Of a stretch of 10,127 nt of DNA, positions 1 through 6,517 are shown piece after piece (position 1 is the first letter of the stretch; the number at the start of each line of letters is the position of its first letter). The notes under the pieces are model-generated. The model was not told where the DNA came from. It saw only the letters and a program-made list of their open reading frames with translations, and made no database searches. Source of the DNA: a virus; the UHGV virus genome UHGV-0213869. One strand, given 5' to 3'. A program made the translations under genes and the position numbers.

Positions 1-494
1 ATGCCGACGGGCAGGTCGGGCTGCCGGTTCGTGGCGCTGTCCTGACGGTGTATATCGGCTGGAAAGGTTTTGCCCTGGTATGCAAAGGGAAATTTACCGT
101 TGATGAGGTTGAACACCGGGGCGCGCCGGATGTGGTTACCATCCGCGCCCGGAGTGCAGATTTTCGCGGGACGCTCAATTCCCGCCGTGAAGGCTCCTGG
201 CATGACACCACGCTCGGTGCGATTGTTGAGGCGATCGCCTCCCGTAACAGGCTGGAAGCCAGTGTCGCTCCGTCACTGGCCGGAATTAAAATCCCGCACA
301 TCGACCAGTCGCAGGAGTCCGATGTGAAATTCCTGACCCGTCTTGCTGAACGCAACGGCGGTGAGGTGTCGGTAAAAATGGGAAAACTGTTGTTTCTCAA
401 AGCGGGGCAGGGAGTGACGGCCAGCGGTAAAAAAATCCCGCAGGTCACCATAACCCGCAGCGACGGCGACCGCCATCATTTTGCGATTGCTGAC
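1..494 (+). pseudogene. D: Internal fragment of tail protein D (P2 gpD-like), about residues 57-219, encoded on the plus strand, opposite to the rest of the operon
   Basis: Plus-strand frame reads ...DADGQVGLPVRGAVLTVYIGWKGFALVCKGKFTVDEVEHRGAPDVVTIRARSADFRGTLNSRREGSWHDTTLGAIVEAIASRNRLEASVAPSLAGIKIPHIDQSQESDVKFLTRLAERNGGEVSVKMGKLLFLKAGQGVTASGKKIPQVTITRSDGDRHHFAIAD, then leaves the gpD sequence as I recall it. It is open at the left edge of the window. Confidence 0.7.
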
Positions 495-645
495 CGGGCG
501 CGGATGGTGACTACATCCGGTGCGCCCCGGTGTTCAACCTCATCAACGGTAAATTTCCCTTTGCATACCAGGGCAAAACCTTTCCAGCCGATATACACCG
601 TCAGGACAGCGCCACGAACCGGCAGCCCGACCTGCCCGTCGGCAT
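1..645. repeat. Imperfect inverted repeat inside gene D: arm 1..152 is the reverse complement of arm 494..645 (149 of 152 identical)
   Basis: Hand alignment of the reverse complement of 1-152 with 494-645. The three mismatches (arm positions about 509, 512 and 521) are all synonymous third-codon positions in the D frame. Confidence 0.85.
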
Positions 646-811
646 CGTTCAGTTCAATATCAAGCTGGTCAGCCTCAAAGCCCCGGTTATCCGTCAGGGT
701 CATACTCATCAGACGGTCGCTGATATTGCCGGTAATATCCCTGCTGTCGAGCATCAGCATGTAATCCGGCGTCAGCGTACTGCCTGCATCAAATGTCAGT
801 GCATCCAGCAT
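476..811 (-). CDS. D: Tail protein D (P2 gpD-like late control D), N-terminal 108 residues only; ORF ends prematurely in IAK-stop at the orientation breakpoint
   Basis: ATG at 811..809 overlaps the U stop (TAATG). Translation is MLDALTFDAGSTLTPDYMLMLDSRDITGNISDRLMSMTLTDNRGF...VVTIRARSA followed by 3 unrelated codons and a stop at 476-478. Confidence 0.85.
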   Translation of the reverse strand: MLDALTFDAGSTLTPDYMLMLDSRDITGNISDRLMSMTLTDNRGFEADQLDIELNDADGQVGLPVRGAVLTVYIGWKGFALVCKGKFTVDEVEHRGAPDVVTIRARSAIAK

Positions 812-1290
812 TATCCCGCCCCCGTCATATCCGTGAATTTAGTCGCCATACTGCCAGCCTTACCGATGAGCGATTCCGCCTGTTTACCGATATCGCCATA
901 AAGCGCGGCCAGTGATTCATCAACGCGGGTGAGCGACAGCGTAAAATCAATTTTCCGGGGTGTGCCGTCTGCAAAGAAAATACTCCCTGTTTCACTCACC
1001 CTGCTGATGACATACATGCCGTAAATCATGCCAGTGCCATCCAGCAACGGCCACGCCCGGCCTTCCTCTGCCATCAGCCTGAGCGTGGTCATCGTCAGCT
1101 TTCCGCCGGTCAGTTCGGGATAAAGCACACCGGCAAGCGTCATGTTTTCCTCACCCACACCGAGAAACTGATAGGCATCCCGTTTACCAATACGGGAATT
1201 TGACGGCCAGCGATAATCCGATTCACGTTGCATGGTCTGGTGCGGCAGCGTCTGGCGCATAAAAACAAACATCCCTAACGCGAGCATCAT
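811..1290 (-). CDS. U: Phage tail protein U (P2 gpU), 159 aa, intact
   Basis: 159-aa ORF MMLALGMFVFMRQTLPHQTMQRESDYRWPSNSRIGKRDAYQFLGVGEENMTLAGVLYPELTGG..., same length as P2 gpU; sits between T and D as in P2. Confidence 0.93.
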   Translation of the reverse strand: MMLALGMFVFMRQTLPHQTMQRESDYRWPSNSRIGKRDAYQFLGVGEENMTLAGVLYPELTGGKLTMTTLRLMAEEGRAWPLLDGTGMIYGMYVISRVSETGSIFFADGTPRKIDFTLSLTRVDESLAALYGDIGKQAESLIGKAGSMATKFTDMTGAG

Positions 1291-1304
1291 TTTTCGTCAC
1301 CTCC

Positions 1305-2906
1305 TTAACCGTCATGCATCATGCTGGCACGGGCGCGCGCACGTTTATCCCGCTCGTATTTTTCGAGCGCATCCTGTAACTGGCGGTCGAGCTGTGTTCC
1401 CGGTGCATTACCACCCGGCAGGCTGATGTGATATTCGTTTTTACTCTGGTCTACATACGAGCGGCCAGCCGGTGCCGTGACCGGCTGGTAAGCCTGATAG
1501 CCTGCATAAGAGCTGGTCGCCGGAATATAACCACCTGTGCCATACGTGGCGGCATGAGTTCTGGCGGCAGTCTGGTCAAGTGCGTCAGACTCTTTGTTGA
1601 TGACGCCGAGTTTTTCCAGTACCCAGTCAATACCGCTGCGCAGTTTGTTGAACGCATTAAGCGGCAGCATCAGCGCGTCAGCCAGTGCCTGCCCGAACAT
1701 GACGCCCGTGTCACGGCAACGGTTCAGGGTGTCCTGGGTGGCTTTGACCGGGGCAATCAGGTTTTTAAACCACTGCCACGCGGCCTGTAACTTTTCGCCC
1801 AGCCAGTCAAACACCGGTTTCAGTGGCGAGAACAGCTCCCCCACCGGCGCAAATGCTGCTTTCAGCCCTTCAACCACACCACCAAAGAATGCGCTGACAG
1901 GCTCCCAGTATTTACGGATAAGCAACGCCCCGGCGACAATGGCAGCCACCACAGCCACAACCGGCCAGCTAATAGCCCCGATGGCGGTCATAACAGCACT
2001 GCCAACCGTCGTGAAGATTGCCCCCATTGCGCCTGCTGCCGCGATGATGGCATTGATGCCGGTGATAACCGGCCAGGCTACAAGACCAATTGCACCGATG
2101 ATGCCAATCAGCGCCAGCGCGCCACCGGCAATGAGGCCAATGGTTGACGCCAGTGATTTGTTTTTCTTGATCCAGCCGTCGAGTTTTAACACATACTTTG
2201 TGGCCGTCTGCGTGAGATTACGCAGTGCGCCTTCCTGCTGGTCAAACAGGTCAGTCCCCACCGCCTCATAAGCAGACTGAAACTCCTTAAAGTCACCGCC
2301 GAGGTTATCCTGCATGATATTTACCAGCTCGGCGGTCTTCCCGTCTGAGGCTTTAAACGCAGCGGTCAGTTTGTCCAGCTTTCCGGTTGAGGCGGCAGTC
2401 ATCAGCACGGCGGCGGCTGAGCTGGCTTCCTCCCCGAAAATGGTTTTCATGTATTCAGCCTGCTGGGCAGTACCGAGCCGGTTTTTCTCAAAACTGGCCT
2501 GCATTTCTTTCAGAATGGTAAATACTGGTCGGGTGTTTCCCTTACTGTCTGAGGTTTTCACGCCAAGCTCTTTGAGTGCATCCCATGCTTTTCCCGTCGG
2601 TGCCTGCAGGCGACTTAACACGGCACGGCTTCCCGTCCCCGCCATTGAGCCTGTGATTTTTGCATCATGCAGCGCTCCGACCATTGCGGCGGTTTCTTCA
2701 ATGCTGACACCGGCATTTTTTGCCACAGGTGCAGCATAGGTCAGCGCATCGCTCATACCGTCAAAATCGGCGGCGGTTTTGTTCATCGTCATGGAGAGAA
2801 CATCCCCGATATGAGCGACCTTATCGTTTGAAAGCTGAAAGGCGGATTTCATCCCCATCAGCAGGGCAGCGTTTTCTTCCATCGTGCGACGGTTCGCCAG
2901 CGCCAT
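1305..2906 (-). CDS. T: Tail tape measure protein T (P2 gpT-like), C-terminal part, about residues 283-815 (533 aa ORF starting at an internal Met)
   Basis: ORF begins MALANRRTMEENAALLMGMKSAFQLSND... and contains a glycine/alanine-rich hydrophobic stretch typical of tape measure proteins. With the other two pieces the residue count is 815, the P2 gpT length. Confidence 0.88.
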   Translation of the reverse strand: MALANRRTMEENAALLMGMKSAFQLSNDKVAHIGDVLSMTMNKTAADFDGMSDALTYAAPVAKNAGVSIEETAAMVGALHDAKITGSMAGTGSRAVLSRLQAPTGKAWDALKELGVKTSDSKGNTRPVFTILKEMQASFEKNRLGTAQQAEYMKTIFGEEASSAAAVLMTAASTGKLDKLTAAFKASDGKTAELVNIMQDNLGGDFKEFQSAYEAVGTDLFDQQEGALRNLTQTATKYVLKLDGWIKKNKSLASTIGLIAGGALALIGIIGAIGLVAWPVITGINAIIAAAGAMGAIFTTVGSAVMTAIGAISWPVVAVVAAIVAGALLIRKYWEPVSAFFGGVVEGLKAAFAPVGELFSPLKPVFDWLGEKLQAAWQWFKNLIAPVKATQDTLNRCRDTGVMFGQALADALMLPLNAFNKLRSGIDWVLEKLGVINKESDALDQTAARTHAATYGTGGYIPATSSYAGYQAYQPVTAPAGRSYVDQSKNEYHISLPGGNAPGTQLDRQLQDALEKYERDKRARARASMMHDG

Positions 2907-3262
2907 ATTCAGCGAACTGGCCGGAAATATGGCCTCGGTGGGCGCTGCCGGTGTGGGGATTGCGGCGGCGGGAACGATGGCCGGAGTTAAGCTGCTGATG
3001 CCCGGTTATGAGTTTGCGCAGAAAAACTCAGAATTGCAGGCCGTGCTCGGAGTGGCAAAAGACTCCGCCGAAATGGCTGCACTACGCAAACAGGCGCGCC
3101 AGCTCGGCGACAATACCGCCGCCTCGGCAGATGATGCAGCCGGTGCGCAGATTATTATTGCGAAAGCCGGTGGGGATGTTGATGCCATTCAGGCGGCAAC
3201 GCCGGTCACGCTGAACATGGCGCTGGCGAACCGTCGCATGAGGCCATATTTCCGGCCAGTTC
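2885..3262. repeat. Two nested short inverted-repeat pairs bounding the inverted T segment: 2885-2906 with 3217-3238 (22 bp, MALANRR codons) and 2914-2936 with 3240-3262 (23 bp, ELAGNMAS codons)
   Basis: Exact reverse-complement matches read directly from the sequence. Confidence 0.85.
2914..3238 (+). pseudogene. T: Inverted internal segment of tape measure gene T (about residues 182-289), coding on the plus strand
   Basis: Plus-strand translation ELAGNMASVGAAGVGIAAAGTMAGVKLLMPGYEFAQKNSELQAVLGVAKDSAEMAALRKQARQLGDNTAASADDAAGAQIIIAKAGGDVDAIQAATPVTLNMALANRR bridges exactly the end of the N-terminal piece (..ELAGNMAS) and the start of the C-terminal piece (MALANRR..), but in the opposite orientation. 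Confidence 0.8.
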
Positions 3263-3805
3263 CTTTCCGGCCTGATAACGCTGTTTTACTGCGTTAAGTT
3301 TTGCCTGTTGCGCACTGACACGCACCAGCGCATCACGCTGACGGTTAAGCTGTGCGGTGGTTTCACTGATACGGTTTTTCAGTCCCTGCTCATCATGTGC
3401 AAGATTGCGGGTATTAATTCCCACAGCGGCCAGTTCCCGTTGCTGGCGTTTAACGGAATCCGTCAGGTGGTTACATTTCGCCTGTAAGTCCTCCGCCGCA
3501 CGCTTTGCGGATTCCAGCACTTTCGCCTGAGCACGGGTCGGACGTTCGGTGTTTTTAAACTGTGTGGCAAGGGCTTCGGCTTCCTGCCGTGCCTTTTCAA
3601 GTGCATGACCAGTCACGGCAAGCTGTGCGCTGGTCTTGCGAAATCCCTCAATACGGGATGCGTGACCGTTCAGCTCGCGCAGTGATTTTTGTGTTTCCCG
3701 GATATCCCCCGACAGCGACTTACTCGCTGTGCGGATGGATTTAAACGGGCGGGATGCCTGGTCAACAGCCCTGAGCAATACCTGTAATTTTACATTGTTA
3801 CTCAT
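3206..3805 (-). CDS. T: Tail tape measure protein T, N-terminal part (residues 1-189 at 3239..3805), followed by 10 aberrant codons and a stop
   Basis: ATG at 3805 overlaps the E' stop. Translation MSNNVKLQVLLRAVDQASRPFKSIRTASKSLSGDIRETQKSLRELNGHASRIEGFRK...QRYQAGKELAGNMAS, then CDGSPAPCSA-stop, which is antisense of the inverted segment. Confidence 0.88.
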   Translation of the reverse strand: MSNNVKLQVLLRAVDQASRPFKSIRTASKSLSGDIRETQKSLRELNGHASRIEGFRKTSAQLAVTGHALEKARQEAEALATQFKNTERPTRAQAKVLESAKRAAEDLQAKCNHLTDSVKRQQRELAAVGINTRNLAHDEQGLKNRISETTAQLNRQRDALVRVSAQQAKLNAVKQRYQAGKELAGNMASCDGSPAPCSA

Positions 3806-4225
3806 TCGTGTTTCCGCTTCGCCGGAGCGCCTTTTCGCGCCATGTGATGAGTTCGGTCAGGCTCATGGGATACAGTTCTGATGGCGGCCAGTGAAATATC
3901 ACTGCCACATCCGCCATCAGGTCATCGACCGAGAGATTTTTCGGAAACGTCACTGCACCGAGTTCGGCGACAAAAAACCGACCACCTTACCGGCCAGCGC
4001 CACAAGGTCAGGCAGTTCCAGCGCAGCGACTTCCTGCTCGGTCAGCATCGGTGCCGTCATGCGCGGCAGCACCTTAATCAGTGCATCGACTTCGGAGTTC
4101 GCGACCGCTGCCAGACTGACACCGCGCAGCGTCCCGGCATTGGGTTTCATCAGCGTGACCTGTTCGATAACCTGCTCACCACGTTTGACCGGATTGTCCA
4201 GGGTAATGACATTTTCTTTGTTCAT
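3798..4225 (-). CDS. E': E+E' fusion (P2 gpE+E'), made by programmed -1 ribosomal frameshift near the 3' end of E; the extension ends at TAA 3798-3800, overlapping the T start
   Basis: Slippery heptamer TTTTTTG on the minus strand (3977..3971). Reading from it in the -1 frame by hand gives FVAELGAVTFPKNLSVDDLMADVAVIFHWPPSELYPMSLTELITWREKALRRSGNTNE-stop, ending in the ATGAGTAA overlap with T. Confidence 0.8.
3950..4225 (-). CDS. E: Tail assembly chaperone E (P2 gpE), 91 aa
   Basis: 91-aa ORF MNKENVITLDNPVKRGEQVIEQVTLMKPNAGTLRGVSLAAVANSEVDALIKVLPRMTAPMLTEQEVAALELPDLVALAGKVVGFLSPNSVQ; position between FII and T as in P2. Confidence 0.92.
   Translation of the reverse strand: MNKENVITLDNPVKRGEQVIEQVTLMKPNAGTLRGVSLAAVANSEVDALIKVLPRMTAPMLTEQEVAALELPDLVALAGKVVGFLSPNSVQ
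3971..3977 (-). promoter_or_regulatory. Programmed -1 frameshift slippery site TTTTTTG for E/E'
   Basis: Heptamer T6G lies 6 codons before the E stop; the downstream -1 frame is open to the T start. Confidence 0.8.
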
Positions 4226-4281
4226 GGTTTTCTCACTTCTGAATCGGGGTTAACCGGTCAGCCAGGCTGACCGGATGAAAA

Positions 4282-4800
4282 TCACAGGCCGATATTGCGG
4301 CGGTGTTGCTCCAGCCGGTCGACGCCGTTCACCTTCTCAATCATGTTGATGGTGTCGATTTCGACCAGCTCCTTACCGTCCATCGTCAGCCGGAAATAGG
4401 TGCAGACCACGGAGATTTTCGACTCGGTGTCTTCTCCCTGTTTGCCCTCGCCGGTGTCGATTTCTTTCTGACGTCCACGCATGACCACCTCGACGGCCAC
4501 CGTTTCGCCGGTATCGTCGCGCTGGTAAGAGCCTGCAAAACGAATCGGTACGGCATCCACACCGGTTGCGGCGTAAAGCTCCCAGATAACCGAATCCGGG
4601 AAGCCACCGAGCGACCACTCCATTGACAGCGCATCGTCATCAAGGCCGAGGTCTACCGGTGCGCTGCCGTTCATCCCCGCACCGCGATAGTTTTCGAGCT
4701 TACGGGTCAGTTTTGGTAGCGTGACGGACTTCGCGACGCCCTGATAGCTGTAGCCGTTCAGAAAGACGTTCATTAACTTGAGTTTGCGCGGCATTGCCAT
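4282..4800 (-). CDS. FII: Tail tube protein FII (P2 gpFII), 172 aa
   Basis: 172-aa ORF MAMPRKLKLMNVFLNGYSYQGVAKSVTLPKLTRKLENYRGAGMNGSAPVDLGLDDDALSMEW...; same length as P2 FII; directly downstream of FI. Confidence 0.94.
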   Translation of the reverse strand: MAMPRKLKLMNVFLNGYSYQGVAKSVTLPKLTRKLENYRGAGMNGSAPVDLGLDDDALSMEWSLGGFPDSVIWELYAATGVDAVPIRFAGSYQRDDTGETVAVEVVMRGRQKEIDTGEGKQGEDTESKISVVCTYFRLTMDGKELVEIDTINMIEKVNGVDRLEQHRRNIGL

Positions 4801-4812
4801 CGGTCAGGCTCC

Positions 4813-6003
4813 TTAATTGCTGTTAACCGAGGTGACCAGATTTGCCAGGTATTTATCGGTAATACGCTGGCGCAGGGTCAGGTTTTCAAGAGGAGGCACC
4901 GGTGTATAGTCGTAGTCGATATACAGTTTTCCGGCCTTGAGGGTTTCCGCATCGTTGGATTCTTCGCTGAACCAGCAGGTCGCATCCACGATATAGCCGT
5001 TTGTTTTCAGCTCACGGAATTTGGCATTGATGCCGTCAACGATGTCGCGAATCAGCGTTGCGGTGATGGGCTTGTCCACCGCCCACATGTGCGCCTCAGC
5101 CATCGTGTCGGCCATCACCTGCGCGGTGCGGGTGTAGTTTTCAAAGAGGAACAGCGGGTCATCAGAGCAGGTACGGTTACCCCAGAAGCGGAAACCGTCG
5201 CGGCGAATCAGCGTTGTGACGCCTGCCTCGTTCAGCAGGTCAGCATCGGTGCCGGACTCCTGCAAATCCCAGAATACAGATGCGCTGATGCCGGTAACAC
5301 CGTTTACCCCGACGTTGGACAGCGTTTTATGCCAGCCCTGCTCCTGGTCGATTTTAGCACGCAGCCCCAGCGCACGGGCGGTGGCATACGCGGTGGCGGT
5401 AGTGCTGCTGACCGTATCCCATGCGAGGAAATCCGGCCAGATGACCATCAGCTCACGCTGGCTGAAATTCTGGCGGTAGGCTTTCACCTCGGAAATGGTT
5501 TTACAGCCCCATGCGCTGATATACCCGAAAGCGCGCAGCTTCTGACAGACTGATGCCAGTGCAACAGCCACCTCTTTGGTGTCCAGTCCCGGCACGCCGA
5601 GAATACGCGGTTTAACACCGGTTACCGACTCTGCCGCCAGCAGGGCTTTCAGTCCGGTATACTGACCGTTTTCGTCAGTGGTGCCGATGATATTGGAAAC
5701 GGTCTGCGCGAGTTTCGTTTCTTCGTCGTCGCCGGTGCCGTCTTCAACACGCACGACAACGGTGACCGGTTTTGACTGGTCAGCGATGGCCTGCAACGAT
5801 GCCGCCAGCGTGCCTTTTTTACCGGCCTTTGCAATTGCGCTCTGCACATTGGTAATCAGCACCGGTTTATTGAGGGGGAAGGTTTCCGCATCCGCATCGC
5901 TGGCCGTGCAGACCATGCCGACAATGGCAGTGGATACAGTGGAAATGACGCGGGTGCCGTCGTTAATCTCCAGCACCTGCACGCCGTGATGATAGTCACT
6001 CAT
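4813..6003 (-). CDS. FI: Contractile tail sheath protein FI (P2 gpFI), 396 aa
   Basis: 396-aa ORF MSDYHHGVQVLEINDGTRVISTVSTAIVGMVCTASDADAETFPLNKPVLITNVQSAIAKAGKKG...; same length as P2 FI. GGAG ribosome-binding site about 8 nt upstream of the ATG at 6003. Confidence 0.95.
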   Translation of the reverse strand: MSDYHHGVQVLEINDGTRVISTVSTAIVGMVCTASDADAETFPLNKPVLITNVQSAIAKAGKKGTLAASLQAIADQSKPVTVVVRVEDGTGDDEETKLAQTVSNIIGTTDENGQYTGLKALLAAESVTGVKPRILGVPGLDTKEVAVALASVCQKLRAFGYISAWGCKTISEVKAYRQNFSQRELMVIWPDFLAWDTVSSTTATAYATARALGLRAKIDQEQGWHKTLSNVGVNGVTGISASVFWDLQESGTDADLLNEAGVTTLIRRDGFRFWGNRTCSDDPLFLFENYTRTAQVMADTMAEAHMWAVDKPITATLIRDIVDGINAKFRELKTNGYIVDATCWFSEESNDAETLKAGKLYIDYDYTPVPPLENLTLRQRITDKYLANLVTSVNSN

Positions 6004-6107
6004 CCGTTTAACTCCGTGGTTAATGGGTGCAACTATTTTCTGTTGGGCAGTGCATGAGACGCTATTTGACCTGACTGGTCAGTGGATGAAACAACAGATT
6101 AAAGAAA

Positions 6108-6128
6108 AGGCGGGCAATTCGCCCGCCT
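6108..6128 (-). terminator. Rho-independent terminator hairpin (8-bp GC-rich stem AGGCGGGC/GCCCGCCT, loop AATTC), followed on the minus strand by a U-rich tract
   Basis: Stem 6108-6115 pairs with 6121-6128. The minus-strand sequence just 3' of the stem is TTTCTTTAATCT. The plus-strand side has an A-run before the stem and only a weak T tract after it. Confidence 0.6.
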
Positions 6129-6451
6129 GTCCTGATTTGAACTCACTCATTTTCCGACTGACAATTTACATAGCCCAAAAGTTATCAAATCTGACAGTCT
6201 GCTTTGAGTGAGAAGCAGACATTTACTTAACCGGATAGCAAGAGACTTCATACTACAGCTCATACATCATGGTTGATCCCGGAGTTTTCAGCAATGGAAA
6301 TTGCCCACATGATCGTACCGTAACCACATTAGAAGCAGGTTCACTTTGTGAATTTTGATTGTGTCACCCTATCAGTTTTGAATTTTTATAAAAAATATTC
6401 GCAAATTTGTGAATTATGAGAGACATACGAGCATGGACAACCAATGTTACT

Positions 6452-6481
6452 TTCATACACAATGAAGCAACATGATAAAAA
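6452..6481 (+). promoter_or_regulatory. Putative sigma70 promoter of the cargo gene: -35 TTCATA (6452-6457), 18-bp spacer, extended -10 TGaTAAAAA (6473-6481)
   Basis: By-eye match to the consensus in the AT-rich region about 35 nt upstream of the start codon. Several alternative hexamers exist, so this is weak. Confidence 0.25.
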
Positions 6482-6506
6482 TACACTGACTTTAGTAAGT
6501 AAATTT

Positions 6507-6511
6507 AGGAG
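6507..6511 (+). promoter_or_regulatory. Ribosome-binding site AGGAG of the cargo gene, 6 nt upstream of ATG 6518
   Basis: AGGAGattgcgATG. Confidence 0.7.
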
Positions 6512-6517
6512 ATTGCG

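Follow-up and report, generated by a model that had tools for sequence, protein, structure and literature searches.

Mis-oriented assembly pieces as the probable source of an inverted half-copy of gene D in a P2-like prophage sequence

The stretch of DNA analysed here, hereafter the window, comprises 10,127 nt of the virus genome UHGV-0213869 and opens with an inverted partial copy of the tail gene D that abuts a truncated D gene, which raises the question of whether a prophage was rearranged in its host or whether the sequence was put together in the wrong way. According to the ORF list, the Pfam matches and the comparison with phage P2, the window represents the late tail-gene block of a P2-like prophage and is read mainly from the minus strand, with the gene order from D on the ogr side through U, T, E/E' and FII to FI being the same as in P2 (Table 1). 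The Pfam scan of the 10 principal ORFs revealed tail genes and one FRG-domain gene. An intact prophage residing at yegQ in two complete genomes, namely those of E. coli S1-ZIM-01-A from Switzerland and E. coli A3024 from China, is 99.9% identical to window positions 494-9944. A reference copy of this prophage, L002, was the sequence against which the window was aligned by blastn.

Table 1 Features of the window. Alleles A and B are those discussed in the text; reference positions are those of L002.
Feature	Window position	Strand	Details
Flipped piece P0, in D	1-493	plus	D codons 57-220; L002 6152 down to 5660; allele A over 1-389, allele B at 7/7 A/B sites in 390-473
Left repeat arm	1-152	plus	D codons 57-106; A-type, 100% identical to L002
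Allele-B patch at J1	390-521		132 nt, 10 substitutions; straddles J1; possible extent up to 348-703
Truncated D ORF	476-811	minus	111 aa; 106 native codons followed by codons read from the flipped piece
Junction J1	493/494 (491-496)		reference descends to 5657-5660, ascends from 6001; offset ~344 nt; 3 nt (CCG) common
Right repeat arm	494-645	minus	D codons 57-106 in native context; B-type bases at 509, 512, 521
D	811 down to 494	minus
First long piece	494-2913
U	811-1290	minus
Tape-measure gene T	1305 to ~3805	minus	followed by E/E'
Overlap X	2885-2914		L002 8392-8421; inverted copy at 3209-3238; sole mismatch 2907/3216, at an A/B site
Junction J2	2913/2914		reference ascends to 8421, descends from 8716; offset 295 nt
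Flipped piece P1, inside T	2914-3238	plus	L002 8716 down to 8392; A-type over 2937-3090, B-type at 3216
Allele-B patch at J3	3216-3335		straddles J3; possible extent up to 3091-3439
Junction J3	3238/3239 (3238-3241)		reference descends to ~8390, ascends from ~8693; offset ~301-305 nt
Overlap Y'	3239-3262		L002 8693-8716; inverted copy at 2914-2937; sole mismatch 2937/3239, at an A/B site
Second long piece	3239-9944
Tail tube gene FII	4282-4800	minus
Tail sheath gene FI	4813-6003	minus
Cargo slot, one gene	6518-7852	plus
Tail-fibre assembly gene G	8083-8610	minus
Tail-fibre gene H, C-terminal part	8612-9937	minus
Junction J4	9944/9945		reference ascends to 15398, descends from 15714; offset 316 nt; no common bases
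Flipped piece P2, in H	9945-10127	plus	H residues ~177-236; L002 15714 down to 15532, 100% identical

In P2-like E. coli prophages gene D, coding for a tail/baseplate protein, is intact, whereas in the window it is split, with codons 1-106 in their native position, codons 57-220 on the other strand and the remainder beyond the window. Instead of a single uninterrupted D ORF of ~387 codons beside U and ogr, there is one that stops after 111 codons, the rest being located on the opposite strand. The inverted partial duplication and the truncation of D reported in the preliminary description were confirmed. The two arms of the repeat are 152 nt long, 98% complementary and 341 nt apart, and a repeat search of the window showed them to form its longest inverted repeat, far beyond chance. 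They differ at three third positions, pairing 125/521, 134/512 and 137/509, all of which are synonymous and fall in D codons 97, 100 and 101.

At the DNA level, the D fragments share 98-100% identity with annotated D genes, the values being 98.6-99.0% for genes named "phage late control D family protein", and the plus-strand fragment matches the Pfam family PF05954 (Phage_GPD, E=5e-14). The truncated ORF reproduces reference D residues 1-108 exactly (also residues 1-108 of WP_024216726) and then ends with IAK and a stop codon. The extent of 108 residues given earlier for the minus-strand part thus holds for the protein match but not for the DNA, where collinearity stops after codon 106 at window position 494, Ser107 and Ala108 being re-created by chance from the flipped sequence (TCA GCA replacing AGT GCA). 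As for the plus-strand fragment, previously given as residues 57-219, its start was right and its end had to be moved to residue 220: bases 3-494 correspond to residues 57-220, with codon 220 lying within the 3-nt CCG common to both parents.

The flip in D is one of several. Compared with L002, the window contains four strand-flip junctions in 10 kb (J1-J4), which bound three flipped pieces located in D, T and H, and both window ends fall inside flipped pieces. The flips in T (2914-3238) and H (9945-10127) had been missed in the preliminary description, and the recurrence of the same kind of flip in these two genes speaks for a systematic artefact instead of one isolated event. T is split by its flipped piece into fragments of 199 and 533 aa, while H has no N-terminal part in the window and its residues ~238-280 are absent. 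Three essential tail genes are broken in this way in a prophage that is otherwise unchanged compared with the intact copies from two countries.

When the flipped pieces in D and T were re-oriented, a gapless and collinear 9,739-nt tiling of L002 was obtained, with T (815 aa) and U intact and D open over codons 1-219. Overlaps of 152, 30 and 24 nt link the re-oriented pieces to their neighbours, and apart from these nothing is gained or lost, so that collinearity with the closest reference is restored at no cost, as would be expected of a misjoin. The inverted repeats of the window, namely the D arms and two further ones in T, are these overlaps between neighbours, with one copy in each orientation. 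The coordinates of J2 and J3 agree within 30 and 24 nt, and these junctions therefore mark the two ends of one mis-oriented piece rather than independent events. The most probable explanation is that the D half-copy was produced when overlapping contig pieces of a two-allele sample were joined in the wrong orientation, and not when the prophage was rearranged in its host.

The invertible tail-fibre segments of the Mu Gin, P1 Cin and e14 Pin type and shufflons have in common with the window that a few hundred bases within phage tail genes are flipped. Inversion of tail-fibre segments is known from some relatives of P2 and Mu, and H is indeed the site of one flip in the window. Programmed inversion of the tail genes, whether of a Gin/Cin/Pin-type segment or by a system resembling a shufflon, is nevertheless effectively refuted here, with hardly any probability left to it. 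No recombinase was found among the 10 principal ORFs scanned with Pfam, and the segment ends carry no conserved inverted crossover sites. The reading frames of D, T and H are broken instead of having alternative ends swapped, two of the flips affect D and T, which are not host-range genes, and no other complete E. coli genome shows either orientation as a variant.

The breakpoints themselves show no sign of a recombination-site mechanism. Junction microhomology amounts to 3, 1, 0 and 0 nt at J1 to J4, respectively, and no motif common to the eight breakpoint contexts beyond chance was detected. The longest word common to unrelated contexts among these eight is the 8-nt GCCATATT in T, which is direct and not inverted, and which falls in the upper tail of the random-pair distribution (words of at least 8 nt in 16 of 300 random pairs). 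A restriction-site or proximity-ligation origin was rejected as well: although CCGG occurs at J1, it is missing there from the left parent, and no site is common to the other junctions.

What distinguishes the junctions is the allele found around them. All of the 18 listed mismatches to L002 are located within ~105 nt of J1 or J3, the remaining ~9.7 kb being 100% identical. They form two patches of a second allele, B, in the backbone of allele A, and the probability that two such patches, randomly placed, would both straddle one of the four junctions is P ~0.0025. Over 348-703 and 3091-3439 the window does not differ from the prophage of E. coli D5 (L005), and its positions 3242-3400 match the T genes of other E. 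coli genomes at 100% identity. Every listed mismatch except the one at 3239 matches this second natural allele as found in the D5 prophage; that at 3239 is an effect of junction placement and vanishes with allele B taken as the parent, J3 then lying at 3238/3239.

The earlier suggestion of two naturally diverged D alleles is borne out, the variant bases being exactly those of the D5 prophage. The divergence had been regarded as synonymous only, which is true within the arms but not beyond them, where the plus-strand fragment carries two non-synonymous changes relative to the backbone allele, H192Q and I204V. The idea that the plus-strand piece is the foreign allele had to be abandoned, as positions 1-389 are 100% identical to the L002 backbone and the foreign bases (509, 512 and 521) sit on the minus-strand arm. 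With regard to the two origins proposed, inter-prophage recombination and strain-chimeric assembly, the second one fits, whereas homologous recombination is not supported, with only 3 nt in common at J1, where D nucleotide 318 is joined to nucleotide ~660 on the opposite strand. Recombination of this kind between two prophages lying in inverted orientation was also rejected, as it would keep the local gene order and cannot create such a join.

The two copies of each of the three overlaps are of different types, A and B, at 5/5 informative sites (three in the D arms and one in each of the two T overlaps), which implies that the sequenced material contained both alleles. Had a duplication arisen in one molecule, its arms would have been identical at the start, so the two-allele overlaps speak against a single-molecule origin. 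At J1 and J3 the breakpoint coincides with a switch to the co-assembled allele, as would be expected of a misjoin. A point against misassembly is that J2 and J4 join A to A outside any B patch, which leaves these two junctions unexplained by the patches.

E. coli A3024 (NZ_CP191562.1) contains two P2-like prophages (L006 and L007), adjoining pflB and yegQ, which have identical D proteins (WP_024216726.1) but different cargo and tail fibres; co-resident near-identical D genes thus occur naturally. About 15% of the genomes with this D family hold more than one copy of it (1,826 places in 1,590 genomes). Together with the A3024 pair, these multi-copy carriers make a real two-prophage genome plausible as the source of the window. 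The second P2-like prophage of A3024 (L006) was considered as the donor of allele B and rejected, being A-type at every patch site.

Since E. coli cells with two P2-like prophages exist (A3024 and ~15% of the carriers), it could be supposed that a prophage was scrambled in such a cell by template switches during replication or by illegitimate recombination, leaving local inversions bordered by inverted duplications, and that the junctions were later patched through gene conversion from the other prophage. Staggered breaks or template switching are known to yield inversions flanked by short inverted duplications. We nevertheless consider this scenario quite unlikely, as four illegitimate joins together with at least four A/B crossovers would be required within 10 kb of a prophage otherwise free of mutations, and three essential genes would have been destroyed at once. 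Duplications made in one molecule should moreover be identical, whereas the informative sites of the overlaps are all allelic. The arms produced by an in vivo fold-back or staggered break would be identical at origin and acquire random mutations later, which is not what is seen here: all the arm differences coincide with natural A/B polymorphisms.

Searches for the rearranged sequence elsewhere also speak against a scrambled prophage. Of the 5,426 complete E. coli genomes searched, 1,594 gave a match, but in no case did it span J1; the T flip was likewise absent from this set, and no phage record spanning J1 was found. The exact junction sequences had no match in viral contigs (J1, J2 and J4), metagenome contigs (J1 and J3) or species-representative genomes (J1 and J2), and an exact protein look-up returned no record for the truncated D or for either of the T fragments. 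It is very unlikely that the window is a faithful read of a recently scrambled prophage with fold-back or staggered inversions in D, T and H and conversion tracts from a second prophage at two junctions. If true, this would represent a bacterial clustered template-switch rearrangement between co-resident prophages, which would be modestly interesting but is not supported here.

Inverted joins may also form in the tube, by phi29 multiple displacement amplification (MDA) or by a library template switch, if such chimeras are abundant enough to assemble. An origin of this kind is still an artefact, although a physical and not a computational one. At least 85% of MDA chimeras were described as "inverted sequences with intervening deletions", most of which joined nearby parts of one molecule (Lasken and Stockwell 2007, PMC1855051), with the distance between the joined parts peaking at ~250-300 nt (PMC4595205). 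Junction complementarity of at least 2 bp was reported for 93.5% of the proximal inverted chimeras (PMC1855051), and the overlaps peak at 6 nt (PMC4595205).

The window resembles the MDA chimeras of both studies in its inverted geometry and in joining segments ~300 nt apart on the same molecule, its four offsets of 295-344 nt being near the published peak. It differs from them in that its junctions mostly have no microhomology, with just one of the four showing at least 2 nt where complementarity of at least 2 nt, typically 5-8 nt, would be expected. The T flip is also balanced: at J2 and J3 the reference is tiled exactly and the overlap is small on either side, a fit that independent template switches would not produce. 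Finally, the arms belong to different alleles, and template switching leaves these two-allele overlaps unexplained. Overall, in-tube chimeras are an unlikely source of the window.

The reading preferred here, that of mis-oriented assembly pieces, would involve the following steps. The sample would have contained two close P2-like alleles, either in two prophages of one genome or in two strains, with allele A belonging to a prophage identical to the yegQ copy in E. coli S1-ZIM-01-A and A3024, and allele B resembling the E. coli D5 prophage in D and T. The assembly would have broken at the allele differences, giving short pieces (≥493, 325 and ≥183 nt) whose overlaps with the long neighbours measure 24-152 nt. 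These overlaps would have remained unmerged because their two copies carry different alleles, and the pieces would then have been chained end to end without gaps, every short piece being reversed. An unmerged overlap combined with a reversed piece yields an inverted repeat whose arms differ only at A/B polymorphisms, the 152 nt in D being the largest one. We infer that the flips were introduced either in silico, during assembly, scaffolding or the ordering of contigs, or by chimeric molecules in the library.

Misassemblies are known to include inversions, and the co-occurrence of closely related strains in a sample has been named as one of the causes (PMC9661791). As in the inversion-type misassemblies considered by QUAST/MetaQUAST and metaMIC (PMC9661791), the window shows local strand flips relative to a near-identical reference, breakpoints where related sequences differ together with allele switching along the contig, and collinearity restored by re-orienting the pieces. 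Unlike in those cases, its pieces abut without Ns and overlap by variable lengths, and no specific assembler or scaffolder behaviour could be matched. The overlaps of 152, 30 and 24 nt are not a constant k-mer length and fit no specific assembler model, and the N spacers that most scaffolders insert are absent; both points count against misassembly. So does the orientation of the detectable joins, 4/4 of which are flips, with no direct join among them; under random orientation the chance of this is ~1 in 16, which points to a systematic cause.

Several specific routes to such an error were considered. The constant k-mer overlap of a de Bruijn assembler found no support, since the distance from the breakpoint to the nearest A/B site on the excluded side is 0-119 nt and follows no pattern. 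Natural inverted repeats traversed in the assembly graph were rejected, neither allele having one at the breakpoints. It may be speculated that read 1 and read 2 were concatenated, or that mates were appended without being reverse-complemented, which would fit the 295-344-nt offsets but leaves the balanced T flip unexplained.

As written, the record would be annotated with D, T and H pseudogenes, and the element might be classified as a defective prophage or taken to document recombination between prophages. The D half-copy is real in the base string and most likely not real in the organism. The sequence comparisons point to a source that would be an intact circulating P2-like prophage, identical to the copies in the Swiss and Chinese complete genomes and mis-assembled beside a second allele. 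The combination of short flipped pieces, inverted-repeat arms differing only at known polymorphisms and mismatches clustered at junctions may be useful in genome scans as a flag for this class of error that needs no sequencing reads.

Outside the flipped pieces, the window carries a cargo gene (6518-7852, plus strand) in a variable slot between FI and G, coding for a 444-aa FRG-domain protein (PF08867) that matches the PADLOC candidate defence family PDC-S15 (E=7e-99). In relatives the same slot is occupied by genes for Shedu or an Sll1717-family P-loop ATPase, or by hypothetical genes. The identical 444-aa protein is recorded in 2,907 blocks of the assembly collection, and in 10/10 places shown (L008-L017, 10001-11335) it belongs to a lambdoid prophage of the Rac/Qin type and not to a P2-like phage, being located between hok/gef-Rem and DUF977/YdaT/Cro-CI genes. 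The same cargo is thus found in two unrelated families of temperate phages. The slot is bounded, where similarity to P2 stops and resumes, by a 36-nt imperfect inverted repeat (83%, 6188-6223 and 7995-8030), each copy of which looks hairpin-like by eye and might be a putative terminator. A 46-nt direct repeat in the H fragment (9950-9995 and 10082-10127, 132-nt spacing, 87% identical) also matches H of P2 at several offsets and is suggestive of repetition within the shaft of the tail fibre.
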